This document shows positions 5,961 through 25,768 of a stretch of DNA of 25,827 bases, in pieces (position 1 is the stretch's first letter; every line of letters begins with the position of its first letter). A program made the position numbers and the translations under genes. The stretch is taken from IMG/VR virus record IMGVR_UViG_3300045988_153208. One strand, written 5' to 3'. The notes beneath the pieces were generated by a model. The model had not been told where the DNA came from. It made no database searches and saw only the letters and a list, made by a program, of their open reading frames with translations. This DNA comes from a virus.

Positions 5961-5984
5961 AGTGTTATTTCCTCCTTGTATTTT

Positions 5985-7318: not shown

Positions 7319-7340
7319 GTTTTCAATCTCCTTTTACTCA

Positions 7341-8495: not shown

Positions 8496-8755
8496 TACTT
8501 TTTAATCTCCTATAATAAACTAATACATTCAAATACAGTTTTTCTATAAATTGAGAACTCAATATCATTTAAAACATTTAGCCCTTCTAATTTACTAAGC
8601 AACTATAAAAATCGCGGGTCCTAAATAAAAATTTCATTTAAGCCCGCAATTTCAATAATAACTGTATTTAATTGTTTATCCCAATCTTCTTCATTTTCTC
8701 TCATAGGGATTAATTTCCACAGTTGATTAGTTAATCTTACTATATTTTTCTCCAT
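8495..8755 (-). CDS. Small hypothetical protein, about 86 aa. Its stop overlaps the ATG of the downstream gene (TAATG).
   Basis: ATG at 8753-8755. Minus-strand translation MEKNIVRLTNQLWKL... has 3 in-frame TAGs and ends at TAA 8495-8497. Weak RBS. Confidence 0.3.
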
Positions 8756-8783
8756 GACTTCATTAGAAATATCTGTATGATAT

Positions 8784-9371: not shown

Positions 9372-9392
9372 GATACGCCTCCTATTTATTTA

Positions 9393-9980: not shown

Positions 9981-10001
9981 TTTATTATCTCCTTTTTCTC
10001 T

Positions 10002-10040
10002 AAAAAAAATAAGGGGAGAGGGAGTAAATCCCTTCTCCCC
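10002..10040 (-). terminator. Hairpin GGGGAGAGGGA-GTAAA-TCCCTTCTCCCC plus U-run on the minus strand, immediately downstream of the putative capsid gene.
   Basis: Inverted repeat 10013-10040 with A-run 10002-10009 on plus. Sequence-similar to the 4838-4866 hairpin. Confidence 0.55.
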
Positions 10041-10065
10041 TTAAACAATAGTTATATTAAGGTTT

Positions 10066-11175
10066 TAATCAAATAGTACCACTCTTACGGCCATCATAGG
10101 TAACAACCTTACCAGTAATGCCATCATAATTCCAAGTATACATTTGACCCATTAAGGAAGTGTCAACATAAGAGCAAATGTTGTTAGCCAACATACAACC
10201 AACGCCGACCTTCTTATAAACCTGAATCTCACGAGAACGATCGTAATTGCTGAATTCATCAACAATAGTTCCACCCTCGAAAGCAATCTTTACAGGCTTG
10301 CCATCAACACCAGTAGGAATAATCCAAGCATAACCAGGATCAATAACCTTACGAGTATTACTTTCATCTTCGAAGCCCTACTCTAAAATAACAACCTTGG
10401 TTCCCTTATAGGTAGCCAAACGGCCAGTATTCCACAGCTCAGTCTTCATAGCTTCAGTATAACGCCAAGCTTCATTAGGAATCATACGAACAGCAAATTC
10501 ATAAGTACAATAAATAGTAGGAGTACCATAAGCAGAAGCAATGGTAATCAAACGATCCATAGCACCCTCATCAAAACCTGCTGCAGCAACGCGGTTAGCA
10601 GGAGGTAGCTGATTGATAGAAGACTTCAAAGCCAAAGCAACTTCCTTATAAATCAGTTCATCCATACCATCCATAATAATCTTGGTAACTTCAGCAAAAT
10701 CAACACGACCATCTAAGAACTCTTCGAAGCCGATTTGAGCAGCTCCGCCGATAGCAGAGGTACGGACCTCAAAGCTCTCGCTCTCAGCAGGTCCCAGCTT
10801 GAAGACTTCATAGATACCAGCCAGTCCAACACGAGTCACAAACTGCTTAGCACGTGCGCGTGTATTTAGAGGACGACGGAAAATGGGCTTATCACCCTGA
10901 GCAAACTGCTTAACTTCAGCAAACTGCTCATAAGACTGAGAAACCTTCTTAGGAAGAACTTCATCCAAAGTCTCCTCAATCATTGAGAAAATTAGATTTT
11001 TATTTTCACGATATAGAGCATTGGTACCAGCCAGCTCGTTCATCTCATTACGTAAAGTATCGTTCAGAGCCTCATAAGAAAGGTTCTGACCATTATAACT
11101 GTAAGCCACAGGAGAAGAAGGATCAGCCTTAGCAACAGTCTTCATTAAAGCAACTAAATTGTTTCTATCTAACAT
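10066..11175 (-). CDS. Putative major capsid protein, 370 aa. One in-frame TAG at 10378-10380.
   Basis: ORF-track 10378..11175 continues in frame through TAG to TAA at 10066-10068 (315 nt in frame). ATG at 11173-11175 with AAAGGAGAG. Position scaffold-decoration-capsid as in lambda/SPP1. Followed by a strong hairpin. Confidence 0.5.
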
Positions 11176-11192
11176 TATTCTTCTCTCCTTTC

Positions 11193-12128
11193 TTACGCAA
11201 TACGTAGAATCTTAGCGCCACGTTGTCCATCAGGCATAGTATATACCTTAACAACCTGCCACTTCATATCCTGACTCTCATCTTTTACAAGAATTCCGTC
11301 AGCAGCTGCTGGAGCTAAAATATCACCAACAGAAACACTATCTTCATTAATCATATTAGTAGTATAATGATCACCAACATTAGTCTTGAAGACACGAGGA
11401 ACCATTGCAGTGCCTGGAGTCATACGCTTCTCATGATAAACACCAAGCTTCTTATATGGATCATTAGTCCAAGTCAGCTCTTCGTAAATGTCAGCAACAT
11501 CAGTTAGAACCTTATCATAAGCATACTTTACAGGCACAGGAGTCTTAGTCTGATTGGTCTTAGGATCAATCTCATACTCTACACCATTATAAGTAAACTT
11601 ATTGTCCTTAACATCATAAACTTCGCCAGCGATGGTAACAGTCTTTAGACCCTGATCTAAAGCAACAGTGTGCTCAAGCACCTTGTGATCAGCACCAGTT
11701 TCATCAACACCATTCCAGAAACGTCCACCATATTCAACCTCGGTATGCTCCCAATCGTATGGAGAATAAATACGAGCCTGATAGTCGTCCTTTAGCATAG
11801 CAAATTCGCAATCCCACTGCTTAGTTCCATCAGGATGATCGCGATATAACTTAATCTCATTATAAACTAGCATCCACTCGCCCTTGCCAGTAAAATTCAC
11901 TTCACCAATACCATTGGCATTAGCAGCGTAATCATACTTGACAAACTGACCGTTTTCAAGAATATTAATACCCTTGTTAGCAGGCAACTGAGCATAAATT
12001 TGAGCGGTTCTTTGTGCAGACAGGTGATTTGGCTCAACCTGACCATAACCAAACTCAACATACTTAGCCTGTGACTTAGGTGGATTTTTACCAACGCCTA
12101 AACGAGAATTTAAAAAATCCTTAAACAT
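11193..12128 (-). CDS. Capsid-associated protein, 311 aa. Decoration-like by position between scaffold and capsid; could alternatively be the major capsid protein.
   Basis: Complete uninterrupted ORF. ATG at 12126-12128 with AAGGAGG. TAA at 11193-11195. Confidence 0.55.
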   Translation of the reverse strand: MFKDFLNSRLGVGKNPPKSQAKYVEFGYGQVEPNHLSAQRTAQIYAQLPANKGINILENGQFVKYDYAANANGIGEVNFTGKGEWMLVYNEIKLYRDHPDGTKQWDCEFAMLKDDYQARIYSPYDWEHTEVEYGGRFWNGVDETGADHKVLEHTVALDQGLKTVTIAGEVYDVKDNKFTYNGVEYEIDPKTNQTKTPVPVKYAYDKVLTDVADIYEELTWTNDPYKKLGVYHEKRMTPGTAMVPRVFKTNVGDHYTTNMINEDSVSVGDILAPAAADGILVKDESQDMKWQVVKVYTMPDGQRGAKILRIA

Positions 12129-12146
12129 TTAAGTATGTCCTCCTTA

Positions 12147-13736
12147 TTAGTTTTTATTGGCTGATTCTAGAACAGCCTTGACCCAAGCTGGCATTCCAGC
12201 ATCTCTGTCATCATCTAAATTGCTTAAATTATAGGTAGTTGGGCCTTTATCATTATTATCATCATCAAGGTTAAAATTAACCTTGTTGCGAACACAAATA
12301 ACAGAAAGTTTTGCTTCAATATCATCAACAGAATACTTATCAATGTTATCAATAACATCTTTCTTATCATCATCAGACAGCATATAGAATGATTGAATCA
12401 TAGCTTCTTTATCCTTGCGTTCAATACTATTTTTAAACTCAGTTAAAGAAGTATTAGTTTCACTTAGAGTTTTATTTTCAGCCTCTAATAAACTAAATTT
12501 ATTTTGTAATTCTTCATATTCTGCCTTTAAGCTAACATATTCTTCAATTTCATCCAAGGAATACTTTTTCTTTTTCTTTTTATCCTCATCATCTTCTGAA
12601 GGATCGTCATCTTCATTTTCTGACTTTTGACCATTATTTTTAGAAGAACCATCATCTTTTTTGTTCTCAGGGTCGCCAGAATTATTGCCCTTATCATCGT
12701 TTGCCTTTTTATTTTCTTCTTCTTCTTGCTTTTTCTTAAATTCGGCTTCATAAGCTTCAACCGCATCTAAAGCAAACTGAGGCTCTGCTGCTGGAGTATA
12801 AGATTTAGTTACTTCAATTAAACCTTCACCAGGAACAAGACCATCAGAATCACTCAAAGAAAAGTTTAAACGATAATATTTCATATCTCCGCGGTCTTGA
12901 AGAATAGCAAATTTTTGACTATTATCTTCAAAAACGCCATCAATACGATATTTAGAGCAATAATTGTTAGAGCCATCAGGGAAAGCCTTATTTACATATT
13001 CCCATAAAGCACTCCATAGAGAATCTCCGATTTCTACGGCATATCTATTAAACACTTTTGCTCCTCCTTCTTTTAATAATTCTTTTAGTTCGTTCATCAT
13101 TGAGTATAGTTCATTTTTAAAACTATCATCAAATGAAAGAGAAAACTTTGTAATAGAGGAGCCTTCGAAGCAAGGTTCACACTCTTCTCCTAAAATACAA
13201 AGTTTAGAAATAATTGCTTCATTAATAATGAAAAACTACGGCTTTCCATTATTATCTTTCGTCCAAGTTCCATCTAAAGTACCTTCATCGAGCTCCATAG
13301 AATGATTATTGCCTTGCTCAATGATGCGCTTACATTCTGGATATTGGCCGGTCCATAAATATCCTTCAGTCATAAGATATTCATGTTCATTAACGCCATC
13401 ATCTAAAAATTTCTAAAACCAAACCTTGGCACCTAAATCTACAAAACCATAAGGTTTAGTAGTGTCTTTCATTTCAAACTTTCCGTTTGAAATATCAATA
13501 ATTCTATTGTGTTCCTCAAAATCTCCATTAGATTCATTATAAAAGCCAACAATAGGACTGCCAGGGAGACTATTAGCCATCTCCCTCGCAGTTTCTTTAG
13601 AAATAATGCTTCGATTGCGATTTGGTTCATCCCCAACGTAGCAAACTTTAATTTGGCATTTAGAAATCAAAGGATTAATAGGAGTTACATTAATAAATTC
13701 ACAAGGCGTTTCAAGTTTAATACTTTGATGCTTCAT
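12147..13736 (-). CDS. Capsid scaffolding protein fused to an about 210-aa N-terminal domain (possibly prohead-protease-like), 529 aa. In-frame TAGs at 13413 and 13236.
   Basis: ORF-track 13413..13736 and 12147..13100 are in the same frame. Hand translation of 13101-13412 shows no TAA/TGA. ATG at 13734-13736 with AAGGAGG. C-terminal half is highly acidic with coiled-coil-like repeats (EYEELQNKFSLLEAENKTL) and a K-run, typical of scaffold proteins. TAA at 12147-12149. Confidence 0.5.
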
Positions 13737-13747
13737 GATTTACCTCC

Positions 13748-15409
13748 TTAATTCATTGACTCTTTATTTTTTATGGTTTTTTCACTTTTCTAATCATCAG
13801 CCTTTTCAGGTCGCCCAGACTATTTTGTTTCAGTAGTCTGTTTTGTAGTAGTCTATTGATTACTACTTCCTGAATTATTTTGTGTTTTATTCTAATTGTT
13901 TGAACCTTTATTACCCAAAACATCTTGACTACTCATAGTAGAAGACATTAATGGTGGGATCATAATTTCAGTTAATTTCAACACATCATTTTCAAATACC
14001 GCAGTATTTAAAATAAAACTCTAAGAGTGACCAAGAGCAATTTGAGGTAGCATCTTAGAATAACCAAGTTGCGTTTGTTCTTTATATAATTTTGACATTT
14101 CTTTATAATTATATTGTGTAGTTTCAAGCATATAAAATTTAAAACTATATTTCTTATTGTTCGCAACTTTCATCTTTACTATTCTATCAAAAAAAATGTT
14201 AAATTGCAACAACAAGTTTCTAACAGTTGATTCATCATTAAGGATAGACTTCTCTAATGATAAATTACCATCAGTATTAAATAGATTTTGAGAAATACCT
14301 AAATTATTATAAACAGTACGTTCAACTTTTGCTAAATCATCTGTAGTAGTTGTAGTATTTTTATCTGATAAATCAATAGATTGAACATCAGTAAATGTTG
14401 TTAAAACATCAACACCAATAGCTCTTGATAACATAGCAACAGCATTATTATGTATGTCACGAGATTCATCAATATCAAATATTAAATCGCCATTTTTATC
14501 CATTGGAAGTTTTTGAACAATAATTTTTAACAACTTCTACATTTGTTTTCTGCGGTCTAAATCTTGAGCAGCATCTAAATCCATAAGAGCAGGGATAGAA
14601 TTAATAAATGGTGGGACATCACTACCATTAAAATTAAATTTCACACTTAATTCTGGAGATAGTAAATACCAACTTCCACTATAATCTCCCTTAATATCAG
14701 GAAGTAATTTTCCTTTCTTATATAAAACATATCCGCGCTAAAATTCTTCGGGGAATAATTTTAATACGCGCATACGATAATTAGGATCTGGAAACTAATC
14801 AAAAAACCGCATGTCAAACTCAATCGCTGGCATACCAGCCACAAAATATCTAGAACGGCAATAACTAGCAGGTAATTCTTGTAGCATTAAACTATTTGCA
14901 GATTGCACTATATATCCATAATAACAACCATTTTTCATAATACTTTGAGCAATATCACCGCAGATTTTTTTAATATAAGTATTATCTAAATAATTTAATA
15001 ACTTTGAAAAATCTTTTAAAACTTTTTCATCTTTTACTGTATCATCTAAAATCTCTGGAGCGACATACCAATCATATCTATACAAATAAGCAAAATAATT
15101 ACATACTCGCTCATAAATGCCGCTTATATCATAAAATAAATTAGAAATTCTACGCATTTCAACAATATCACGATTTATCATAGCTCGTAATACATCATTT
15201 TTAGTGACCATGCGACATGGTCCACGACGATTAGGATATAGCCGAGCAAATGACCCTAAATCTAATACAGCATCATCTAATGTTTGAACCCCAACTTTTA
15301 TTTTACGATATTCTGTTGGATCAGCAGTTCGATAATCACTTGTTCCATTGCTGATATTAAATCCTTTGGAGTGGATGATTTCCTAACGTGATAATTCTTT
15401 AGTATCCAA
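13748..15409 (-). CDS. Portal protein, 553 aa, with a Q/T/N/S-rich C-terminal tail and multiple in-frame TAGs.
   Basis: Putative TTG start at 15407-15409, 7 nt after AAGGAGG. Same frame as ORF-track 14795..15211 and 14021..14533. Hand translation continues to TAA 13748-13750. Located between terL and scaffold. Sequence FYDISGIYERVCNYFAYLYRYDWYV is portal-like. Confidence 0.55.
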
Positions 15410-15421
15410 AATTCCACCTCC

Positions 15422-15778
15422 TTAATATCCAGCTAATTGCATTATATAATCATATGTAATAAGATTTTCATCTGTATAAGGAATCTCTATTAATTTAAAA
15501 TCATGTAAAGCACAAAAACGTCGTTTTTGATTATCATTATATTGTTGTTGATATAAACCTTTTTTACCACCAAATTTTGCGCTAGGCTCATAATGCTATT
15601 TACCCTAATATTCAATAATAAAATCAATTCTACCATCATCATCAAAAACGACAAAATCGAAACGTAAGGGTCTGCCACTTGGTGCCTTCAAATCTGGGAA
15701 AATATACTCCATCTTAAATGGTAATTCAGCTTGTCGCAAAATCTCTTCAATTTTAATTTCGCCTCTAGACGCTCTCAT
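15422..15778 (-). CDS. Small Vsr/DUF559-like (PD-(D/E)xK) endonuclease, 118 aa. Possible free-standing homing endonuclease between terL and portal. Two in-frame TAGs.
   Basis: ATG at 15776-15778 with GAGGAGG. Translation ...LRFDFVVFDDDGRIDFIIEY[TAG]GK[TAG]HYEP... carries a D..(I/V)E..G..H-type motif. TAA at 15422-15424 overlaps the portal RBS. Confidence 0.35.
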
Positions 15779-15788
15779 AATTACCTCC

Positions 15789-17522
15789 TCAATTCAAGAA
15801 ACACCAATCTTTAGCATTAAACTTTTTACGTTTCTTCTTTTTATCTTCTTCTAATTTTAAATAATATAGTCCATATTCAAAAGCAGAAAATTTATCTTTT
15901 CGGATACTTTTATTTGCTTGTTTCAGGATAATATTTACTCCTTCAGTTTCTTCACGCAAATTCATCATTTCTTCTTTTAATATGGAAGTTAATGTAAATG
16001 GTTTTAATTCTTCTGCCCTCTATTCTGGAGTCATAGTTTGACCTTTCTTTTTAGCAAGAAGTTTATTTTTTGCTACGCGCTCATCAATTAAAAATTTCAC
16101 TTTTCCAGAAGCAAGTTGTGATTTAGCAATCGCGTGAGCTTCTGTATTAAGTGGCGCATTAGCTTTTATAATATACATAGCATCTAATACTGTATTAGAT
16201 GTTTTATATTTTTTATAAAATAAATCATCGTCATTAACAACACCAAAATCAGGGAAAATTTCATTGGTTTCAGGATCAATCTACGTCTTAACCATGTAAT
16301 CAATTAAACCAATTCCTAAACCATTACCATCAATTACAATTCTATCAGCATTATATTTATAATATAATTTTTTTAATTTAATAGTTTGGTCTTCAAAATG
16401 TTCATCAGATAATGTATATATATTCACTAGACTTTTAATCGACCCACCTTGTGATTGTGGAGTTACTTTAAATACACAAATAACTGAATCGCATCCTTTA
16501 CGACCAACGTCGACAGCAAGTACATAAGATGCTAATTTTGAATTACGCCCGGATGCTTCATATTCAGGCTAATTTAATATTCTATTTCTATCAAATATTT
16601 CAGCATTAAAAAATGCATCTTCTACAGTGCCAGACCATTTACTTTCATATTCTCGATCAAATGAACTTTCATTGAACGTTCCGTCCATTTTTAGGTCTTT
16701 AATAAAATTCGCATCTAATAATTTCATTAAAACAGGAATACGATAAGTACCACCCATAATAATAGATTGCTAAGGTTTAACAATCTCCCAAACTAATAAT
16801 TGGATTAATTTATCATAGGGGAAAGTATTTTTATATCCAGCAGTAGTAATATAAATTTGAGATTTATTAAGAGTTTCATCAGGTTGAGTAGTACCATCCA
16901 TACACATACGAGAAATATTCATTGTAGGAATAATAACTTGTGATAGAATATCACCATCAACACCAACACACTCTTCAATTAAACCACCATGGCGACGTTT
17001 ACCACGAGAAGACTCTCTTGCAGCAATATTATCAAAATATGAACCATTTTTAAATACATATTTAACATAATCTTTACCTTCAAGAGTTTGACCACGGCGC
17101 CAATCTATTTCTTTCTAAAATGCAGGAATAAGAGTACAAATTTCTTGAACTTTTTCTTTTACAATTCCAGCCGCTTGTTCTTTACCTCCAGAAGTAATAA
17201 ATAATTTACATCTGGGATATAAAATCGCACGACACATTAAGACCATCATTGACAAAAAAGATTTTGAATAAGCACGAGGGAATACAGCATAAATATATTT
17301 ATGACGCATCGCAGCGCGCAAAAAGATTCTCTAATAAAAATAGAGTTTAAAATGTTGAGGGCCGCCATCAGGTCCTGCCATGAAGTCGATAAACATATCT
17401 GGGTATTCTCTCCAAAAGGCTATGTACTATCTTGCTTCTGGTATAATTGCACGAAGACGGTCCTCTGAAATTCCAATCTTTTTACGCTTCTAAGATAAAT
17501 CAAGTAAATCCTATAAAGCCAT
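15789..17522 (-). CDS. terL: Terminase large subunit, about 577 aa, with multiple in-frame TAGs.
   Basis: ATG at 17520-17522 (AAGGA RBS). Same frame as ORF-track 17115..17321 and 16569..16757. Contains a Walker-A-like motif (AVFPRAYSKS), an ..RHGGLIEE.. segment, and a C-terminal nuclease-like region. TGA at 15789-15791. Confidence 0.6.
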
Positions 17523-17523
17523 A

Positions 17524-18720
17524 TTATCCTTCTAAATTTCTTAAAGTCTGAGCATCTATTTCAGATTCTTCCTCAAGGAAATCATTATATTCAATTAAAT
17601 CTTCATCTTTAAGATGATCGATTTCCTCCATCGTTAAATCTTCTTCAATATCTTGGTCTTCTTCTTTATTTTCTTCTTCTTGCATTTTCTTAATAGCCCC
17701 TTCAATGAGATTACCTAGATTCATCTCTTCAGTGACTAATGTGTGTGTATAATTCTTTAAATCTTGTAAAGTTTCATCAACTTTATCTTTTGGACCTTCT
17801 GTATAATACCGAGGGATAAATCCTTCAGTCTCACACATGGCTACTAATTCTCCAATAGAATCAAATGCTTCTCCTGTATCTGCTTTGTTTTGAGCGGCGG
17901 TGAAATTACCTGATTTCATTAGACTATCATAAACCTTGCTCATCTTTTGGAAACCTTCGATATCACCAATATCGATCAACTAGTTTGCTTTTAAGGATGT
18001 CTTACAAATTAATTTTAATGTATCAATATGACCAGCGCCGCGGATATCATAAGAACTCATCATTTCTTCATAGAGTTGCTCTAGTTTAACCCATTCTTCG
18101 GGTTTATACGCTTTACCCCACTTCATACGAAGATATAAAATATCTTCTTCTGTTAAATCGAGGTCATCTGCTGGGTCATGTTCAATACCATTCTATTGAT
18201 CAAAATAATCATCACCATCTCTAAAACGTTCTGGTAATTCAGGAGTGTAAGGTTTTAATTCTTCTTCTGGAATAGCGACAGTAGATTTAGCAATAGCTGT
18301 TGCTATTTGCTGGGCATCATAACCTTGTCGTTTCATAGTTTGTTCTAATTTATTATTAGCCACTTCCTATAAAAACTCAGAATCTTTCCATCGATAATCT
18401 CTATATTGTTTAAGTTTCATTTTGGACAAATATCTACCTAAAATACTCATACCAGTTAATTTAGATTTATCTTGTCCATATTTTACCATCAATTTACTCC
18501 ACTCATCTGGAACATAAGGTACATCAATTTCTTGTAGAATCCACATATAAGTTTCTGGATTCCAATTATCTACAAGCATTGTAATACATTTTTTACATTG
18601 AGGGAGTTTTCCATCATTTGGATATTTTTCTAAATTATTAGATGTATAAAACTGGTCAGCGCCCATAGTTCTATTACATCGTTCGCAATAATATACTTTT
18701 TTATCATTATCTACAGTCAT
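17524..18720 (-). CDS. 398-aa protein with an N-terminal Cys4 zinc ribbon (CERC..x23..CKKC) and a very acidic C-terminus. Possible terminase small subunit or DNA-packaging partner. In-frame TAGs at 18367, 18193 and 17980.
   Basis: ORF-track 18367..18720 and 17524..17979 are in the same frame. Hand translation of 17980-18366 shows no TAA/TGA. TAA at 17524-17526 sits immediately before the terL ATG. Confidence 0.4.
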
Positions 18721-18756
18721 AATTTTCCTCCTTATATCTATCCAATAACAGGCATC

Positions 18757-19827
18757 TCAAAATTATAACTGTTTGCCCTTGTTTTTAGCATTACGGCATT
18801 TTTTACAAATACTATAATAACCATCTTTACTAGTTTTATTTTTGCTAAAATATTTATTATGTGCTAATTTAATTTGCCCACAGCGACTACATTTTTTATA
18901 TTTACCTTTTGCTTTATGTAAATAATAATCATATAGGTATTGGTCTTCAGCCGCAGAGGCGATTAATTTTGGAATTTTATTGCGCCATAAACTAGAAATA
19001 TATTCTAAACTATGAGTAATATTAAATTCCTCTTGAATTTTCTTTTGAATGTCTATATTCTATAATCCATCAATTTTATATTCAACTATTCTATCATATA
19101 AGGGATAATCTTTAAGAGCAATGGTACATAAATTATCGAAATCTTCCATAATATACCATAAATCTCTTTCAAAATCTCCCCAACTATCTTGCTTTAAACG
19201 AGAATAATTACATAAAATTGCAGAACATACTCTAGGGTCTAAGAGTGAAACGCCATCCGGAATTGGATAACCATCATCATCAAAAATGCAAGTCGTGTCC
19301 TCTAATGGAATAAAATTTCTTGAACGAGTAATTTTAGTCATAACAATTGGACGACGAACTGCATTTTTAATAACATACTAATCTTTACGCATTTCAATAA
19401 TAGCACGTTTAATTATAAATGCTTCGCGTCCTTCACTAACTCGTAATTTGGCTTCCCAAGTAGTAATGGCGTCTCTTAACTATTTTAAATGAGGTATTTC
19501 TTCTATATCTTTTTTAGTAATTGTAATCTTAGGCTAAAATATTGTATTTTTATTTTCAGTAATTAAATTATAAATTCCATCTTCGCCATTCTCAAATTGG
19601 GAAACAAGACCTTCAAAAGATGTTTCACGCTTATTAACTGTTGCCATACGATTATCAGTTAATAATTTACGCTCCTTTTTCTCTTGTTTCTCCATACAAA
19701 GAATGATATAGTCCCCTAATATTTCTAAATATCGAGGAGAGGGGTCTGGGGTTTCCTCTAATATTTTCTTGACTAATTCATTTCTTTCTTCTGGAGTTTG
19801 TAAGGAATAATCTAATTTTATCATCAT
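18757..19827 (-). CDS. 356-aa hypothetical protein with a C-terminal Cys4 zinc ribbon (CSRCGQ..x17..CKKC). First gene of the leftward operon. Four in-frame TAGs.
   Basis: ORF-track 19534..19827 and 19060..19341 are in the same frame, joined through TAGs at 19534, 19480 and 19378. TGA at 18757-18759. ATG at 19825-19827 with GGAGG. Confidence 0.45.
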
Positions 19828-19852
19828 TACCTCCAGATTTTTTTACGTCTTC

Positions 19853-19936: not shown

Positions 19937-19965
19937 TTGACAATAAAAAAAATTTTTTGTATTAT
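19937..19965 (+). promoter_or_regulatory. Rightward sigma70-type promoter (TTGACA-N17-TATTAT) for the early operon, in the divergent intergenic region.
   Basis: TTGACA at 19937-19942 and TATTAT at 19960-19965. AAAGGAG RBS, then ATG at 19996. Confidence 0.4.
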
Positions 19966-19995
19966 TATTATAATAAAAAATAAAAGGAGAAGTTT

Positions 19996-20394
19996 ATGGT
20001 AATTGCTATTATTATATTAAGTATATTATTAATATTATCTATTATATATAATATATTGTTTACAAAAGGAGTCGCTAAACTTCTTGACCCTGAAAACATT
20101 GAACAAAAATATAATTTAATAGCAGATTATTATGGAGATGCAAATAACATTGAAGAAAGTTTCCCTTGTTGTTTGCTATTACATCTCCAATTTAATGCGA
20201 AGGAATCCGCAAAAATCACAGACTTCTCTAATTATGAAAATTCTAATATAATCGCTTATTCAGTTTTGTCCAAGGGCCCGCCACCGCCTGGATACGCCAA
20301 TCAACTGGAAGAAGACGGCTCTATAAGAATATTAGTCCACAATGTTCGAGTAAATAAATATAAGGATGGTGAATATTTTTGGGAGCCTATGTAA
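19996..20394 (+). CDS. Membrane protein, 132 aa (N-terminal transmembrane helix, PPPPG motif).
   Basis: Complete ORF with good RBS. Hydrophobic N-terminus VIAIIILSILLILSIIYNILF. Confidence 0.6.
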   Translation: MVIAIIILSILLILSIIYNILFTKGVAKLLDPENIEQKYNLIADYYGDANNIEESFPCCLLLHLQFNAKESAKITDFSNYENSNIIAYSVLSKGPPPPGYANQLEEDGSIRILVHNVRVNKYKDGEYFWEPM

Positions 20395-21203: not shown

Positions 21204-21521
21204 ATGGAAGATGGAAAAAATTATTTTGATATTGTAATGCGAGAAGGCCAAGCAATAGTTCATAATGAAGGTTCTATTCATTAGGTTGATAGTTTAGGCC
21301 GTCTTGTTTTTCCTAAAAATTTAAGACAAAAATATGGTATTACTCCTGGTGACCGCATGGAATTTTATACTATTGAATATAATGGTGAAGTTTATGTTGG
21401 AGTGCGAGTGAGTAAACGATATGGTAGTAGAATAGAGTATTTACGCGCTAAAGAAGTATTAGATGATTTGGGAATTGAGATTCCTCAAAAACTAACTGAT
21501 GCTATTAATGGAGTAATGTAA
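21204..21521 (+). CDS. AbrB/MazE/SpoVT-family (swapped-hairpin) DNA-binding protein, 105 aa, with an in-frame TAG at codon 27 (21282-21284).
   Basis: GGAGGAG RBS. Hand translation MEDGKNYFDIVMREGQAIVHNEGSIH[TAG]VDSLGRLVFPKNLRQKYGITPGDRMEFY... carries the classic VDxLGRxVIPKexR..GI..GD motif. TAA at 21519-21521. Absent from the ORF track because of the TAG. Confidence 0.55.
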
Positions 21522-21522
21522 T

Positions 21523-21666
21523 ATGCCTAAGTATAAAAGTTTTGGAAATGCCCTCGCTGCTAAAATGCAGAAAAAGGCTAATTATTATGCTACTAAAGCA
21601 GTTCATCAAATTGTATGGGGTGAAAACCCTAAACGTGGTCGTCCTAAGAAGGAGAATAAGAAATGA
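21523..21666 (+). CDS. Small basic protein, 47 aa (..GRPKKENKK).
   Basis: ATG at 21523 with GGAG 9 nt upstream. Stop TGA overlaps the next ATG. Confidence 0.35.
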   Translation: MPKYKSFGNALAAKMQKKANYYATKAVHQIVWGENPKRGRPKKENKK

Positions 21667-21746
21667 TTCTTGAAGCATTGGCATTAATAGGATTAATTCT
21701 ATTTTTTCCTATCTGGTTTTTTGGTAGAAATAAAATTAAAAAGTAA
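21663..21746 (+). CDS. 27-aa hydrophobic peptide (MILEALALIGLILFFPIWFFGRNKIKK).
   Basis: ATG at 21663 with AAGAAGGAG RBS. Single predicted TM segment with a basic C-terminus. Confidence 0.35.
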   Translation: MILEALALIGLILFFPIWFFGRNKIKK

Positions 21747-21956
21747 TTCTTTTTACCGTTATCTGAATTGAAAAAAGTTTTGGTGAGAGTTTGTACCAGC
21801 CAAACAAAAAAATAAAAATCAAAAAAAATTTTTTCCCGAAACCCACCCCCCCGGTCGGTTTTTATCTGAGAAAAAATCTGAACACTATCGAGACCTTCTT
21901 GGGCTTGGCGCACGCGGAAAGGCTAGACCATCCCCAATACAGCCCCTCAACTCGCA

Positions 21957-21981
21957 GGACCGCGAATGGCTGTCGCGGTCC
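21957..21981. other. Perfect 9-bp stem-loop (GGACCGCGA-atggctg-TCGCGGTCC) with no U-tract, about 60 nt upstream of the tiny-peptide promoter.
   Basis: Inverted repeat read directly from the sequence. Confidence 0.5.
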
Positions 21982-22041
21982 TCATTCACAATAAATACAA
22001 ACTCCACAAAAAATCTCTCGCAAATTTGTGTATTCTGCCAA

Positions 22042-22070
22042 TAGACACGCATCCTGAAATCTGGTATAAT
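22042..22070 (+). promoter_or_regulatory. Promoter TAGACA-N17-TGgTATAAT driving the 31-aa peptide gene.
   Basis: TAGACA at 22042-22047, TATAAT at 22065-22070, with an extended -10 TG. Confidence 0.5.
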
Positions 22071-22095
22071 AGTATTATCAAAGGAGGAATGGTCT

Positions 22096-22191
22096 ATGTC
22101 TATCATCTACAAAGTCGTGCGCTTCATCACCGCGGTCGCTGTTGTCGCGGGCACTGGCATCCTGATGTGCCTCATCTGCCTCCCTCATTGA
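22096..22191 (+). CDS. 31-aa hydrophobic peptide (MSIIYKVVRFITAVAVVAGTGILMCLICLPH), its own transcription unit. Small membrane peptide, possibly type-I-toxin-like.
   Basis: AAAGGAGGAA RBS 8 nt before ATG 22096. TGA at 22189-22191 lies inside the terminator stem. Confidence 0.5.
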   Translation: MSIIYKVVRFITAVAVVAGTGILMCLICLPH

Positions 22192-22204
22192 GGGAGGTTT
22201 TTTG
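22179..22204 (+). terminator. Intrinsic terminator CCTCCCT-cattg-AGGGAGG plus T6.
   Basis: Perfect 7-bp GC-rich stem followed by TTTTTT. Confidence 0.7.
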
Positions 22205-22210
22205 TTGCCC

Positions 22211-22291
22211 TAAGATTGTTAAAAATTTAACGATGTAGCAAGATTGTTAAAAGATTAACAATGTAGCAAGATTGTGAAAGATTTAACAATC
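22211..22291. repeat. Three tandem about 28-bp repeats (tAGCAAGATTGTTAAAArtTTAACaATG), each containing the palindrome TTGTTAA-N4-TTAACAA.
   Basis: Copies at 22211-22235, 22236-22263 and 22264-22291, read directly. Confidence 0.8.
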
Positions 22292-22295
22292 ACTC

Positions 22296-22400
22296 AACCA
22301 AGAGAGGACAAGGACACGCACGGCACAGTGGACAAGGCAAAGCGAGCCAACGAGCGAGCGACCAACAGACAAAGAGAACAACAACACAACACAACACAAT
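22296..22400. other. About 100-nt tract almost devoid of T on the plus strand (A/C/G only; CA and CAA repeats, ACAACAACACAACACAACACAA).
   Basis: Direct reading; extreme strand composition skew. Confidence 0.8.
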
Positions 22401-22408
22401 GATAGATA

Positions 22409-22430
22409 CATTGTTAATGTATTAACAATG
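22409..22430. promoter_or_regulatory. Operator-like palindrome CATTGTTAAT-gt-ATTAACAATG (10-bp perfect arms) between the two skewed tracts.
   Basis: Direct reading. Confidence 0.6.
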
Positions 22431-22432
22431 TA

Positions 22433-22505
22433 GTATAGTAGTATGGTATGGTATGGTAGGGTATGGGGTGGGGTGGGCTATGGGTAGTGGGTAGGGAGAG
22501 AGAGT
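22433..22505. other. About 73-nt C-free G/T/A tract with TATGG/TAGGG repeats and a G-quadruplex-type motif (GGGGTGGGGTGGGCTATGGGTAGTGGGTAGGG).
   Basis: Direct reading; four or more GGG runs separated by 1-5 nt. Confidence 0.75.
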
Positions 22506-22726
22506 AGACCAACAATAAGAGATGCGGACGCGCTTCCCACCGGTCGGCTCACCGGGAACCGCGCACAACAAATCTAATGTAAGTATTCTATTTCTCTTTT
22601 GGGTTCATCATCGTTAACGGCCCTAATCGCCCAAGAATAAGCCCTCGCACAATTGCCAAACAACACAGCAGGGCAGGCGCTGAACCGCGCGTATCCCGCA
22701 ACACACAGCTCTCACAGAGGAGCGAG

Positions 22727-22753
22727 CAAGATTGTTAAAAGTTTAACAATGTG
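22727..22753. promoter_or_regulatory. Operator-like palindrome copy (CAAGATTGTTAAAAGTTTAACAATGTG).
   Basis: Matches the repeat consensus. Confidence 0.55.
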
Positions 22754-22840
22754 AGAGCCAAGAGCAAGAGAGTAAAGAGTGCGCTTGCACAGGTAGCAAG
22801 GAGGATACACACGGCACAGTTGATACATTCGCTGACCGAG

Positions 22841-22866
22841 CAAGATTGTTAAAAAATTCACAATGT
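22841..22866. promoter_or_regulatory. Operator-like palindrome copy (CAAGATTGTTAAAAAATTCACAATGT).
   Basis: Matches the repeat consensus. Confidence 0.5.
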
Positions 22867-22890
22867 GTGGATGTGGTGAAGTCGCTGTTT

Positions 22891-22911
22891 AATTGTTAAA
22901 AATTTCACATT
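22891..22911. promoter_or_regulatory. Degenerate operator-like copy (AATTGTTAAAAATTTCACATT).
   Basis: Partial match to the consensus. Confidence 0.4.
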
Positions 22912-22990
22912 CGCTGTTGGATGCCGAACACGGTCGCAACGCCCCAGACTTCACCACATTAAAGTGTTAAAGAAAAAAAATTGCAAATGC

Positions 22991-23012
22991 GATTGTTAAA
23001 ATAATCACAATC
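22991..23012. promoter_or_regulatory. Operator-like copy (GATTGTTAAAATAATCACAATC) about 40 nt upstream of the promoter at 23054.
   Basis: Matches the consensus. Confidence 0.5.
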
Positions 23013-23053
23013 TTCATCCCGAAAATAAATAGGTTATTTTTGAAAAAACCTCT

Positions 23054-23081
23054 TGACAAATTGCCCTATGTGTGCTACAAT
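23054..23081 (+). promoter_or_regulatory. Promoter TTGACA-N16-TGcTACAAT for the two-gene operon 23112-23550.
   Basis: TTGACA at 23054-23059 and TACAAT at 23076-23081. Confidence 0.55.
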
Positions 23082-23111
23082 GATTACAGTAAAACAAAGG
23101 AGGACGATACA

Positions 23112-23348
23112 ATGTCTAACATCTATGGAGTCTGCTACACCACGAAAGAGCCTGTTGTCTACAACAGAGGGACACAGTGGGAGAAAACCTGTTCCGATTT
23201 CCTGTTCGTTCAGGCAAACAAGGACAATGGCACAAAGCTGGTGGACAAGCTGAACGCTATGCTTGCCGCAGGTGTGGAAAAGTACGAACTGCTGGACATG
23301 ACCAAGATTGACCATTTCTATCTTGACAAGTCCGAGGAAATGTATTAA
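23112..23348 (+). CDS. Hypothetical small protein, 78 aa.
   Basis: AAAGGAGGAC RBS and ATG at 23112. No in-frame TAG. TAA stop. Confidence 0.6.
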   Translation: MSNIYGVCYTTKEPVVYNRGTQWEKTCSDFLFVQANKDNGTKLVDKLNAMLAAGVEKYELLDMTKIDHFYLDKSEEMY

Positions 23349-23361
23349 GGAGGAACTGACA

Positions 23362-23550
23362 ATGACACGCACTATCGCTAATACCTACATCTGTATCAAC
23401 AACGAGGGACAGATGCTCTCCATCATTGCCCGCACGGGCAACGAAGCCCATAACATCGCAATAGGGTTTTTGCGGAAAGCAAACATCGTGAGCGTTCGCC
23501 GTGTATTCAAGTCTGGCAAGCTGGGCAAGGAAATTCTGAAAATTAAATAA
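23362..23550 (+). CDS. Hypothetical small basic protein, 62 aa.
   Basis: TAAGGAGGAA RBS and ATG at 23362. TAA stop followed by the terminator. Confidence 0.6.
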   Translation: MTRTIANTYICINNEGQMLSIIARTGNEAHNIAIGFLRKANIVSVRRVFKSGKLGKEILKIK

Positions 23551-23554
23551 AATA

Positions 23555-23584
23555 AACAGGGCGCAAGCCCTGTTATTTTTTTTA
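23555..23584 (+). terminator. Intrinsic terminator AACAGGGC-GCAA-GCCCTGTT plus T9 (GNRA tetraloop).
   Basis: Direct reading. Confidence 0.75.
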
Positions 23585-23603
23585 TAAAATGCGAAAAAAA
23601 CTA

Positions 23604-23632
23604 TTGACAAATATAAATAAGCGTGTTATAAT
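23604..23632 (+). promoter_or_regulatory. Promoter repeat copy P1: cTATTGACAAATATAAATAAGCGTGTTATAAT (TTGACA-N17-TGtTATAAT).
   Basis: TTGACA at 23604-23609 and TATAAT at 23627-23632. About 90% identical to the copies at 24022 and 25281. Confidence 0.6.
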
Positions 23633-23664
23633 GAATACAGAAATTAAGAAATGAGGTACACAAA

Positions 23665-23853
23665 ATGAAGAACATCTATGAAATCGAGAACATCATCGAC
23701 GAAATCCCCGCTGATGATTGGGCTGGCATTTGTAATCTGATGGACTACTACTATCAGTCGAATTTCTCCGCTGACGCTGAACAGAGACTGGCAAGGGCAA
23801 TCGCTCCTTACGGCTTGACCGCAGAGGAAATCCTGACCTGGGACGCTGAATAA
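23665..23853 (+). CDS. Small acidic protein, 62 aa.
   Basis: RBS AAATGAGGTACACAAA and ATG at 23665. TAA at 23851-23853 lies in the terminator loop. Confidence 0.55.
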   Translation: MKNIYEIENIIDEIPADDWAGICNLMDYYYQSNFSADAEQRLARAIAPYGLTAEEILTWDAE

Positions 23854-23868
23854 GCGTCCTATTTTTTT
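23841..23868 (+). terminator. Terminator GGACGC-tgaataa-GCGTCC plus T7.
   Basis: Direct reading. Confidence 0.6.
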
Positions 23869-23876
23869 GCTGTTGG

Positions 23877-23896
23877 ATTGTTAAAATTTTAACGAG
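23877..23896. promoter_or_regulatory. Operator-like palindrome copy (ATTGTTAAAATTTTAACGAG) between the terminator and the antisense promoter.
   Basis: Matches the TTGTTAA-N4-TTAAC consensus. Confidence 0.5.
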
Positions 23897-23933
23897 CATC
23901 GTCGCGCTCATCAGGCACGTGGCGCCCCGAAAT

Positions 23934-23963
23934 ATTATACCACAACAGTCCACCAGTTGTCAA
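23934..23963 (-). promoter_or_regulatory. Minus-strand promoter (TTGACA-N18-TGgTATAAT) firing antisense toward the 3' end of gene 23665..23853.
   Basis: The rc of 23958-23963 is TTGACA. The rc of 23934-23942 is TGGTATAAT. Confidence 0.4.
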
Positions 23964-24021
23964 GAGAAAAATACGAAAATTTCGCACAAAATTTGCTATC
24001 CCGATTTGTATAGTTTGCCAA

Positions 24022-24050
24022 TAGACAAAATGAAATAAGCGTGTTATAAT
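24022..24050 (+). promoter_or_regulatory. Promoter repeat copy P2: TAGACAAAATGAAATAAGCGTGTTATAAT.
   Basis: TAGACA at 24022-24027, TATAAT at 24045-24050, with extended TG. Confidence 0.55.
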
Positions 24051-24083
24051 GAGTACAACAAAACAACAAAGGAGATACACACA

Positions 24084-24392
24084 ATGATTAACATTCGTTC
24101 TATCCGCAAGCTGGGCAACAATGACGGGCTGACCCTCAAAATGGGCAAAAAGGTAAACTATAAATCCGGCTGGCAAGTTGCCACAGAGGGCATCGAGTGC
24201 AAGACCGCACAGGAAGCCATTGACGCGGTGAGAGACTACGGCGGCAATTGTGGCGTGTGGTTCAGTGAGGGCGTGTATTACATCGACAAAAGCAAGCGCG
24301 TGGCGACAAAGCGTGAAGCTATGGAAATCGGCAAAGCGTGTAATCAAATTTCCGTGTTGAAATGGGCAACTATGACGCTTGCCTACTGCTAA
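24084..24392 (+). CDS. Hypothetical protein, 102 aa.
   Basis: AAAGGAGATACACACA ATG. TAA stop followed by the terminator. Confidence 0.6.
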   Translation: MINIRSIRKLGNNDGLTLKMGKKVNYKSGWQVATEGIECKTAQEAIDAVRDYGGNCGVWFSEGVYYIDKSKRVATKREAMEIGKACNQISVLKWATMTLAYC

Positions 24393-24396
24393 AATA

Positions 24397-24423
24397 ATAG
24401 GGCGAAAGCCCTATTTTTTTTTG
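24397..24423 (+). terminator. Terminator ATAGGGC-GAAA-GCCCTAT plus T9.
   Basis: Direct reading; GNRA loop. Confidence 0.75.
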
Positions 24424-24443
24424 AAAAAATTTCAAAAAAGGTA

Positions 24444-24472
24444 TTGACAAATCCCGAAATAGGTGCTATAAT
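24444..24472 (+). promoter_or_regulatory. Promoter TTGACA-N17-TGcTATAAT.
   Basis: TTGACA at 24444-24449 and TATAAT at 24467-24472. Confidence 0.55.
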
Positions 24473-24502
24473 TAAACCATCAAAAGAGAGGAGCTAAACG
24501 CT

Positions 24503-24694
24503 ATGACAAACTTTGAACAGTATCTCGAAAACCTGATGGGTATGAAGAAAGCGGAAATCATCAATGAGGGCATCACCTGGGGCATCTGGGCGAACACCGA
24601 GGGCAACAAAGCCGAGTTGATGAAATGGAAAAAAGTTCTGCTGGCGCGTTCCCTCGCCGATAGGCTGGAAAGACTGGAAAGGCGGGGCTACTAA
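24503..24694 (+). CDS. Hypothetical protein, 63 aa.
   Basis: AGAGAGGAG RBS and ATG at 24503. TAA stop. Confidence 0.6.
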   Translation: MTNFEQYLENLMGMKKAEIINEGITWGIWANTEGNKAELMKWKKVLLARSLADRLERLERRGY

Positions 24695-24695
24695 G

Positions 24696-24722
24696 ACAAG
24701 GGCGAAAGCCCTTGTTTTTTTT
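24696..24722 (+). terminator. Terminator ACAAGGGC-GAAA-GCCCTTGT plus T8.
   Basis: Direct reading. Confidence 0.75.
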
Positions 24723-24773
24723 ATATGGCATTATGCCCATAATTCGGTTGAAAATTTTGGTGATTTTGCCTAT

Positions 24774-24801
24774 TGACATTCTGCCCCATTTGTGTTATAC
24801 T
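24774..24801 (+). promoter_or_regulatory. Promoter TTGACA-N16-TGtTATACT with no ORF immediately downstream. It transcribes into the GC palindrome and toward the next cassette.
   Basis: TTGACA at 24774-24779 and TATACT at 24796-24801. Confidence 0.45.
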
Positions 24802-24804
24802 CGG

Positions 24805-24831
24805 TCGCGCGCCCACGGTCCTGGCGCGCGA
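24805..24831. promoter_or_regulatory. GC-rich palindrome TCGCGCGCC-cacggtcct-GGCGCGCGA lying between face-to-face promoters.
   Basis: Perfect 9-bp inverted repeat. Confidence 0.6.
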
Positions 24832-24839
24832 AATTTACC

Positions 24840-24868
24840 ATTATACCATGTCCCAGCAATTTTGTCAA
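24840..24868 (-). promoter_or_regulatory. Minus-strand promoter (TTGACA-N17-TGgTATAAT) facing the 24774 promoter and firing antisense toward gene 24503..24694.
   Basis: The rc of 24863-24868 is TTGACA. The rc of 24840-24848 is TGGTATAAT. Confidence 0.45.
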
Positions 24869-24926
24869 TAGGCAAATCAAACAAAAATCATACATTCCAA
24901 ATCCCGAAATTTGTGCATTTTAACTA

Positions 24927-24955
24927 TTGACATTCATACGCCCCTGTGCTATACT
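24927..24955 (+). promoter_or_regulatory. Promoter TTGACA-N17-TGcTATACT.
   Basis: TTGACA at 24927-24932 and TATACT at 24950-24955. Confidence 0.55.
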
Positions 24956-24984
24956 GTATACATAAAACAGAGGAGGTCATGAGT

Positions 24985-25257
24985 ATGACGCGTGAGTACA
25001 AGATTAGGTTCATCGACAGCGAGGCGCAGTATAGCGAGACTGCTACTGCTCAGTGGGACACCGACACCAGTATATGCGATTTCCTTGAAGAACAGCTGTA
25101 TATTCAGTGGGAACTGCGCCCTCTGGAAAGATACTGGCAGAGAGAGTTCTGCACCAAAGGCTGGACGCGGTTTATATATGGTCTATATGAGCAGTTCTCC
25201 GTGTCTTATGACTGGGACAACTCCAATATCATTACCGTTGAAAAAATCCGAAGCTAA
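24985..25257 (+). CDS. Hypothetical protein, about 90 aa (alternative start ATG 24979).
   Basis: AGAGGAGG at 24971-24976. The ORF track's longer N-terminus (from 24946) lacks an RBS. Confidence 0.55.
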   Translation: MTREYKIRFIDSEAQYSETATAQWDTDTSICDFLEEQLYIQWELRPLERYWQREFCTKGWTRFIYGLYEQFSVSYDWDNSNIITVEKIRS

Positions 25258-25270
25258 TTCGGATTTTTTC
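25245..25270 (+). terminator. Terminator TCCGAA-gctaa-TTCGGA plus T6, overlapping the stop codon.
   Basis: Direct reading. Confidence 0.6.
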
Positions 25271-25280
25271 ATTTTTTCTA

Positions 25281-25309
25281 TTGACAAATACAAATAAGCG
25301 TGTTATAAT
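25281..25309 (+). promoter_or_regulatory. Promoter repeat copy P3: TTGACAAATACAAATAAGCGTGTTATAAT.
   Basis: TTGACA at 25281-25286 and TATAAT at 25304-25309. Confidence 0.6.
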
Positions 25310-25338
25310 TGTATTATCAAATGAGGGAGGTATTCAAG

Positions 25339-25560
25339 ATGGAATACTCAGTAGTAGTCAATAATGTTGAGGTCGTGCGCGTGAGCGGTGATGAAGCCGC
25401 GTGGAACAAATTTGAAACGGCGTGTGAGCTGGTGCGGCTGATGCTGGCTGATGGCGGTTTTGGTGAAGCGTGGGCAGAACTCCGCGAGATGAACGGCGAG
25501 CCTATCGCCCGCTTTGATGAAAACGGTATGAGCGAGTGCGGCGCAGTCCGCGGAATGTGA
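25339..25560 (+). CDS. Small acidic protein, 73 aa.
   Basis: GAGGGAGG RBS and ATG at 25339. TGA stop overlaps the next RBS. Confidence 0.55.
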   Translation: MEYSVVVNNVEVVRVSGDEAAWNKFETACELVRLMLADGGFGEAWAELREMNGEPIARFDENGMSECGAVRGM

Positions 25561-25570
25561 GGTGCGACAA

Positions 25571-25768
25571 ATGGACGCTAAGGGATTTACATTTTGCGGC
25601 GGGGCTGATGAACGGGATGTTCTCCGCTACGGCGAGTATCTGACCGATGAACAGTATACCACGTGGGATAGCCACTATTACCGCCTGCGCGCTATCCGCT
25701 ACAATGGCAAGCTGTACTGGCACAAGATGGTGGACGGCGAACTGGTTGAATTTAAGGTTTTGAAATGA
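25571..25768 (+). CDS. Hypothetical protein, about 65 aa, translationally coupled to the upstream gene.
   Basis: GAGGTG 6 nt before ATG 25571. TGA at 25766-25768 lies inside the terminator. Confidence 0.5.
   Translation: MDAKGFTFCGGADERDVLRYGEYLTDEQYTTWDSHYYRLRAIRYNGKLYWHKMVDGELVEFKVLK

Follow-up and report, generated by a model that had tools for sequence, protein, structure and literature searches.

A conserved 31-codon gene for a predicted membrane peptide at the start of a putative early array in a TAG-recoded gut phage

The viral DNA analyzed here, IMG/VR record IMGVR_UViG_3300045988_153208 (25,827 nucleotides [nt]; "the window" below means this whole stretch), contains around positions 21957 to 22204 a small unit in which an open reading frame (ORF) of 31 codons is framed by a promoter, a Shine-Dalgarno (SD) sequence and a terminator. 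The unit raises the question of whether so short an ORF is a gene at all and, if it is, what its product does in the infected cell. An earlier note, made from the letters of the sequence, had described it as a stand-alone unit resembling prophage-borne type I toxins or small membrane-active modulators. Every element listed there was found in place, and its interpretation is borne out in part. We conclude that the ORF is a protein-coding gene under purifying selection. As for its product, we hold it fairly probable that it is an early modulator of the host membrane, acting in host takeover or superinfection exclusion, and not a lethal depolarizer kept in check by an antitoxin. The unit comprises the following features.

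22096..22191, plus strand: gene for the 31-amino-acid (aa) peptide, recognized by a frame-specific synonymous excess and intact in relatives
22042..22070, plus strand: extended -10 sigma-70/sigma-A promoter, recognized by its consensus score and conserved in relatives
22022..22041, plus strand: upstream promoter element AAATTTGTGTATTCTGCCAA, belonging to direct-repeat families D4, D5 and D7
22081..22087, plus strand: Shine-Dalgarno sequence AAGGAGG, 8 nt 5' of the ATG at 22096
22178..22203, plus strand: intrinsic terminator with a 9-bp stem, an AUU loop and a T6 run, found by terminator scan and folding

Coding status and conservation

The product of the ORF is MSIIYKVVRFITAVAVVAGTGILMCLICLPH, with the tryptic peptide FITAVAVVAGTGILMCLICLPH. 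This exact peptide is widespread in human-gut metagenomes, being indexed in 127 blocks of a public assembly collection, and the 24 blocks with the longest carrying contigs were read. As such a sample is selected by identity, relatives were collected without using the peptide, by way of the neighboring 78-aa gene, an invariant upstream DNA word, the DUF7352 neighbor and more divergent DUF7352 variants; a metagenome scan with an alignment of the neighboring DUF7352 yielded, apart from close relatives, just two DUF7352 loci, both unrelated. In this peptide-independent sample, the ORF is intact, with no stop and no frameshift, in 30 of 30 close and 3 of 3 divergent loci, so the lack of ORF conservation that the earlier note had named as evidence against its reading was seen in none of the 33.

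The 30 close loci represent 17 distinct DNA versions of the ORF, which differ in 22 columns, 14 of them synonymous and 8 nonsynonymous. The expected synonymous fraction is 0.24 to 0.25 (binomial P, 9e-5 to 2e-4), and when all frames on both strands were compared, a synonymous excess was combined with an open frame only in the ORF's own frame. Nucleotide diversity is equal in the ORF (17.7% of columns) and its flanks (13.6 to 19.9%; first nine distinct ORF versions), which indicates that conservation acts on the protein and not on the DNA. The replacements are all conservative (V7I, T12V, A15T, V16A, V17I, T20I, and one H31R), and a 33-member cluster at 90% protein identity adds V8M, T12A/I, A18T, G19S, and a rare C28Y. 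The divergent clade (L033 to L035), whose neighboring gene is 80% identical, also has a unit with promoter and SD sequence, and its peptide is MKNFFYRLAQSILVVAAIAGTGILMCLICLPH. Between the clades, the C-terminal 14 residues AGTGILMCLICLPH are identical through 7 synonymous differences, and 6 of the N-terminal 17 residues are identical.

A noncoding small RNA in which the ORF is incidental would account for a short transcript with its own promoter and terminator, and also for the gene callers having missed the ORF on several contigs, the longest ones included. We give this reading next to no probability, as the synonymous excess is specific to one frame, the 33 peptide-independent relatives contain no stop or frameshift, the SD sequence and its spacing are conserved, and the protein is kept across clades that diverge in nucleotides. 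The RNA itself has no Rfam match, and the fold of the whole mRNA (z, -0.49) is no more stable than that of its shuffles. The coding evidence effectively refutes the small-RNA reading already.

Other ORFs overlapping the locus were rejected as genes. The antisense 36-aa ORF 22078-22188 has 5 synonymous versus 17 nonsynonymous sites and stops in 3 sequences, and the overlapping 90-aa ORF 21966-22238 (frame 2), in which synonymous changes are not in excess, runs across the promoter.

Properties of the peptide

On the Kyte-Doolittle scale, the most hydrophobic 19-residue window (residues 11 to 29) reaches 2.51, above the 1.6 that is the classical threshold for a transmembrane (TM) segment, and AlphaFold2 models a single helix over residues 3 to 28 (pLDDT, 89.5). 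The single TM helix of the earlier note is therefore borne out by prediction and would cover approximately residues 10 to 29. The sole charges are K6 and R9, which lie in an N-terminal basic segment, while the invariant C-terminal half presents a small-residue face, A18-G19-x-G21, followed by C25-x-x-C28-x-P30-H31. A lipoprotein was considered and discarded, since the residues before C25 (I-L-M) and C28 (C-L-I) form no lipobox.

No match to the peptide was found in Pfam, PHROG, NCBIfam, PADLOC or the PDB (E of ≤1 to 10 for the family sets), and an exhaustive phmmer search of 1.84 billion representatives returned only its own cluster plus one spurious match, P0028, a repetitive 338-aa translation with chance similarity. 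In a phage collection, tblastn with the peptide and a nucleotide search in near mode found nothing, and the distant mode gave only Streptococcus phage matches of 72 to 76 nt that do not cover the unit. A degenerate version of the C-terminal motif was found one time on each IMG/VR contig of this phage and in none of 185,579 species genomes, which indicates that there is no prophage or host copy. Judged by these searches, the peptide is an orphan family.

The invariance of the C terminus could also be explained by a precursor resembling a signal peptide, from which signal peptidase or an intramembrane protease would release the last 10 to 13 residues or so, GTG/ILMCLICLPH, as an extracellular signal or exclusion factor. 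Such a layout is known from the enterococcal PrgQ/iCF10-type precursors, from iAD1 and from phage AimP, with which the peptide shares a short ORF, a basic N terminus, a hydrophobic core and an invariant C-terminal segment, as well as a strong constitutive-type promoter before the ORF and a terminator after it. The pattern of variation fits too, as the basic and hydrophobic N-terminal part varies and the last 14 residues are invariant from the small-residue A-G-T-G stretch onward. Unlike those systems, the unit has no adjacent receptor gene, with no RRNPP/TPR receptor match in Pfam among the called genes of the 10-kb flanks (11 kb downstream and the upstream operon), and inspection of the sequence revealed no recognizable cleavage site, neither a canonical lipobox nor an AXA site. 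Moreover, the putative mature part is the most hydrophobic one and forms one continuous helix with the rest, the phage looks virulent, and the motif is missing from the species genomes mentioned above. We consider this precursor unlikely.

Expression signals and the type I toxin analogy

The promoter consists of a -35 box TAGACA (22042-22047), a 17-nt spacer and a -10 box TATAAT (22065-22070). The last three spacer nucleotides are TGG (TG at 22062-22063), giving the extended -10 TGgTATAAT, and in the promoter scan it matches the consensus in 11 of 12 positions plus the extended -10. The earlier note had located it correctly, although its notation TAGACA-N17-TGGTATAAT counts the TGG twice, a minor slip. 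The promoter is conserved across relatives, and in L033 it is a perfect TTGACA-17-TATAAT plus TG (TGgTATAAT). The AAATTTGTGTATTCTGCCAA element upstream of it is common to the promoters at 24005, 24756, 24910, 25264, and 25790, and an exact 30-mer taken from the promoter/SD is absent from IMG/VR. The SD sequence, called near-optimal in the earlier note and found to be strong, is kept together with its spacing in all relatives despite neighboring indels, and it is unpaired in the centroid fold. The 5' leader of about 20 nt is unstructured, and the mRNA has about 125 nt.

At the other end of the unit, the terminator stem GCCTCCCTC/GAGGGAGGT (22178-22198) is followed by the T6 run and folds with -16 kcal/mol (z, -3.9; 0 of 200 shuffles as stable). 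The last codons (C-L-P-H) form its 5' arm, and the stop TGA (22189-22191) spans the loop and the 3' arm, in agreement with the earlier statement that the stop codon lies inside the terminator. The opposite strand has no T run, so the terminator is not bidirectional. In the L033 clade, the stem is a different one (GCTTGCCTCA/TGGGGCAAGC, -18.3 kcal/mol), which has been rebuilt by compensatory changes, and the layout with the stop in the loop is the same. With the C-terminal residues identical through synonymous changes and the stem different in the same layout, the peptide sequence is maintained independently of the RNA hairpin. No tRNA genes or Rfam families were found in the window.

These signals bear directly on the comparison with type I toxin-antitoxin systems, in which a depolarizing peptide would be encoded by an mRNA controlled by a cis-encoded antisense RNA. 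The likeness to the Bacillota type I toxins (Fst/Ldr-like, BsrG, BsrE, YonT, and TxpA) lies in the size, about 30 to 60 aa in those toxins and 31 aa here, the single hydrophobic TM helix and the location on phage-related, mobile DNA. There is also a weak promoter-like site on the minus strand at 22102-22074 (10 of 12, no TG). This site, the sole minus-strand candidate near the ORF, points away from it, its -10 GATAAT varies in relatives (GATGAT, GATAGT, and GATGGT), and L033 has no minus-strand promoter near its ORF. The earlier note had suggested searching relatives for an antisense promoter on the opposite strand, and a consensus scan of the sequence, which is the basis of this negative, detected no conserved one; consensus antisense promoters are used elsewhere in the same array (23963-23934 and 24868-24840) and not here. 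The leader of about 20 nt, with its free SD and a fold z of -0.49, differs from the structured, SD-occluding leader of those toxins; the peptide has no charged C-terminal tail and matches no toxin family in Pfam, NCBIfam, PADLOC or PHROGs (E of ≤1 to 10). Expression signals are maximal here, a near-consensus promoter and a strong SD instead of the typical tight repression, the terminator works in one direction, and the setting is the early-gene array of a large TAG-recoded phage and not a prophage toxin-antitoxin locus. With neither a conserved antisense promoter nor a leader that occludes the SD detected, the type I reading is not supported, and we rate it as very unlikely. The option of a small membrane-active modulator, which the earlier note had listed beside the type I toxin, is the part of its interpretation that stands as the best reading.

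The host phage and the early array

The first 19.8 kb of the window (1-19842, minus strand, approximately 30% GC) contains long ORFs only if TAG is a sense codon. With TAG read as Gln, the genes of a structural and packaging module appear, in which in-frame TAG has a frequency of 10.3 per 1000 codons; their products include a terminase, a 487-aa protein, a 529-aa YonD_N-like protein, capsid-like proteins and a tape-measure-like ORF that has 31 in-frame TAG; position alone, between terminase and the YonD_N-like protein, suggests that the 487-aa protein is the portal. In two plus-strand genes (20590 and 21282), relatives have CAG or CAA at the in-frame TAG of the window, which fits TAG as Gln (code 15), and no suppressor tRNA was found in the window. 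Phages of this kind recode TAG mostly in late and lysis genes (bioRxiv 10.1101/2021.08.26.457843), and the concentration of this recoding in late genes is a described phenomenon (PMC10607447).

Identical or near-identical sequence is found on contigs of 130 to 200 kb from human-gut metagenomes and IMG/VR. Within the phage collection, TerL is closest to that of MT836163 (61%), a contig of a human-faecal phage without annotation; then come the cultured phages of Enterococcus (53%) and Geobacillus (E3, 50%) and, with 44%, Phass-1, a code-15 phage from the gut. Numerous weaker matches are to phages of Bacillus and Lactococcus. These matches point to Bacillota as the likely host, in keeping with the sigma-A promoters and strong SD, and the source is likely a TAG-recoded phage of Bacillota with a genome of approximately 130 to 200 kb. 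Phass-1 (OQ749652) was tried as a positional analogue and rejected, as the layout near TerL is not syntenic.

The sequence changes abruptly at about 21800, where the GC content climbs to about 44%. The late genes and the AT-rich plus-strand operon (1-21746) have a GC content at third codon positions (GC3) of about 0.21 and recoded TAG, while the genes of the array that follows (22096-25768) have a GC3 of 0.63 (0.75 in the peptide ORF), no in-frame TAG, the standard code and TAA or TGA stops. By chance, the strict pattern GACA-N14/15-TGnTAYAMT should occur 0.02 times in the window; it was found 10 times, always within 22044-25309. The ten consensus promoters thus lie in 22042-25309, with none in the first 21.8 kb. 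Eight of them are on the plus strand, seven of these eight being followed by an SD and a small ORF, and the next 11.7 kb of the genome contains about 29 promoters with at least 11 of 12 matches. Several further array products are membrane proteins, and no Pfam or PHROG family was found for any of the ten small window products tested. Taking promoter type and codon usage as indications of early expression, the peptide unit would be the first in an array of strongly promoted early genes. What the earlier note took for a stand-alone unit resembling prophage-borne toxins is the head of an array in a large, lytic-looking phage genome.

A candidate analogue of this array is Bacillus phage SPO1's host-takeover module, where small early genes with promoters and ribosome-binding sites (RBS) of the highly expressed type occupy a terminal 12.4-kb region (PMC6873191). 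The array has in common with the SPO1 module (genes 37 to 60; for example, gp56, a membrane-anchored cell-division inhibitor) the clustering of mostly small genes which, singly or as short operons, follow strong promoters of the host type and strong RBS, and the presence of several membrane products. Consensus promoters number 10 over 3.3 kb here, and about 29 over 11.7 kb. Unlike in SPO1, the phage is a TAG-recoded gut phage and the peptide, at 31 aa, is far smaller, and neither the peptide nor its neighbors have PHROG or Pfam homology to that module, which makes the relation one of analogy and not of membership.

The same context speaks against a holin, an antiholin or another lysis-timing peptide, a role that a phage-encoded single TM helix could suggest and that the earlier note had mentioned. 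With 31 aa, the peptide is below the size of known holins (usually at least 60 aa), and it ends in -LPH without a charged C-terminal tail. It is preceded by an early-type host promoter and written in standard-code, GC3-rich codons, against the recoding found in late and lysis genes. Neither an endolysin nor a spanin is encoded nearby, and no lysis gene lies within 10 kb on either side. A role in lysis is accordingly rated extremely improbable.

At least 12 independent metagenome contigs end within the 110 bp of 19963-20075, an extremely AT-rich, low-complexity segment at a divergent promoter region. A genome terminus at this place was considered; the low complexity explains the contig ends more simply, and an assembly artifact is likelier.

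Features neighboring the peptide unit

The unit is flanked by a hairpin on its 5' side and by a region without genes on its 3' side.

21956..21982, plus strand: GC-rich hairpin with a 10-bp stem, AGGACCGCGA/TCGCGGTCCT, and a 7-nt loop, characterized by folding and conservation
22215..23011, no strand assigned: gene-free region of 0.9 kb, characterized by palindrome counts and a T-free tract, outside the peptide unit

The hairpin (arms 21956-21965 and 21973-21982; -18.3 kcal/mol; z, -3.9) had been reported in the earlier note as a 9-bp stem at 21957-21981; it is indeed there, with a stem one pair longer. It lies about 60 nt 5' of the -35 box and hence outside the peptide mRNA. Its pairing is kept in 99.3% of cells over 15 distinct versions, which include one double compensatory change from A:U to G:C and one G:U, and it is also present in the divergent clade L033. 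No T tract follows it in the sequence. It is probably a boundary element (a 3' end, a processing site or an insulator) that separates the early array from the AT-rich operon, although this is a guess.

The operon upstream of the hairpin ends with several small genes. A 105-aa AbrB/MazE-like (SpoVT-AbrB) protein with one in-frame TAG (21204-21521) is followed by a 47-aa basic protein with an AT-hook-like KRGRPKK (21523-21666); it is possible that these are DNA binders for the nearby palindromes or for AT-rich DNA. The last ORF, 21663-21746, codes for the 27-aa hydrophobic peptide MILEALALIGLILFFPIWFFGRNKIKK that the earlier note had also seen; it overlaps the preceding stop (ATGA) and has an SD. 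Close relatives retain it, with changes that are rare and conservative, and the L033 clade lacks it.

The gene-free region begins 12 nt past the terminator and has no conserved ORF and no Rfam match. It contains a 20-bp palindrome, ATTGTTAA-N4-TTAACAAT, present in eight copies against 0.07 expected (in 22215-23011, plus one at 23877-23896). Relatives keep the positions of the palindromes, and they differ in how many copies follow the terminator (3 versus 1). Within the region, 22295-22399 is a T-free tract (34 plus 70 nt, with a single T) in a T-rich genome, and L033 has at the same place a T-free run of 107 nt (2506-2612) with a different sequence, so that composition as such is conserved. 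The tract that follows in the window (22427-22510) is poor in C, has GGGG runs and is not conserved in L033. The architecture of the region as a whole is conserved in relatives, and the region, with its palindromes and T-free tract, is the most unusual thing near the peptide unit; it may be a regulator-binding array, a centromere or an origin. The next gene (23112) has its own consensus promoter.

The unit always adjoins this region, and its ORF could be read as a cis-acting leader or attenuator, in which a ribosome sitting on the 5' arm of the terminator sets the read-through into the palindrome-rich, T-free DNA and the peptide itself is secondary or serves as a nascent-chain arrest signal. 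In both clades, which differ in their stems, the 5' arm is made of the last four codons and the loop contains the stop, and the invariance of exactly the last 14 residues would fit an arrest peptide. The same layout is found elsewhere in the array, at the 62-aa gene (ending at 23853), whose stop lies in the loop of the terminator 23839-23861, and so looks like a house style of a compact array. Downstream there is no ORF or conserved RNA fold to be regulated, gene 23112 being served by its own promoter, and the terminator is strong, with 9 GC-rich pairs plus T6. As RNA polymerase in Bacillota generally moves ahead of the ribosome, termination gated by a ribosome is unlikely. An attenuator is, in our estimate, quite unlikely.

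A more specific version, which we regard as highly improbable, is a translation-sensing gate, with the C-terminal 14 residues (Pro-His-stop) holding the ribosome on the terminator 5' arm by way of the exit tunnel. If this were true, the share of the very strong early transcription that escapes into the T-free palindrome region, a candidate for a regulatory hub or an R-loop-primed origin, would depend on the translational state of the host. A milder variant would have the C-terminal peptide released as a hydrophobic, Cys-containing signal or exclusion peptide.

Farther along the array, the consensus minus-strand promoters at 23963-23934 and 24868-24840 are directed antisense into the 62-aa gene (23665-23853) and a 63-aa gene (24503-24694), respectively, and further minus-strand consensus promoters follow beyond them in the array. 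A plus-strand promoter without an ORF (24773-24801) faces a minus-strand promoter about 25 nt away, an arrangement for convergent transcription. The word CCGGTCGG occurs twice (21851-21858 and 22540-22547; 0.06 expected), and the motif TCCCGAAA is found at about 21836, 23017, 24453, and 24898 (CCCGA at 24001), immediately upstream of or within several early promoters.

Proposed role of the peptide

As an early membrane modulator, the peptide would act in the following way. The near-consensus promoter would be fired by the host RNA polymerase once the DNA enters the cell, and the strong terminator would end a monocistronic transcript of about 125 nt. The short unstructured leader, the strong SD and the GC3-rich, standard-code codons mean that a naive host ribosome should translate it efficiently, so the peptide is probably abundant and made immediately. 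Because a chain this short cannot leave the ribosome before it is released, the peptide would insert into the membrane posttranslationally. By the positive-inside rule, K6 and R9 would orient it with the N terminus in and the C terminus out, the invariant half then being located in the outer leaflet and on the outer face of the membrane. There, by helix-helix packing or thiol/His chemistry, it could interact with a host membrane protein or with itself, which is the least certain step, and an envelope function would be remodeled early, in favor of host takeover or the exclusion of superinfecting phages. Expression signals, coding status, helix propensity and array context were established by computation, and topology, timing, partner and phenotype are inferred.

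A functional comparison can be made with bacterial regulatory micropeptides of the membrane such as MgtS, MgtR, AcrZ, KdpF, and CydX, which are likewise single-pass proteins of about 30 aa. They bind larger membrane proteins within the membrane, and small-residue packing motifs are common among them. These micropeptides are chromosomal and usually cotranscribed or coregulated with their partner, while the gene described here is phage-borne and monocistronic, with no identified partner and no homology to them.

Some points weigh against the proposed role. The peptide family is an orphan, with no homologue whose function is known; its topology, its partner and its phenotype are deduced, and early timing is drawn from promoter type and codon usage; and an invariance limited to the C-terminal half would also fit a processed or secreted peptide or a nascent-chain effect. 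On balance, we place the unit as a new orphan among the known small early membrane proteins of phages and not as a type I module.

Small phage ORFs are routinely missed, and their reality is rarely demonstrated; here, a gene of 31 codons shows selection at the protein level and can be placed as the first and most strongly signaled early product of a TAG-recoded phage. If its target is found, the peptide would provide a minimal membrane-acting tool from an uncultured Bacillota phage and a marker for the standard-code early program that precedes code switching.

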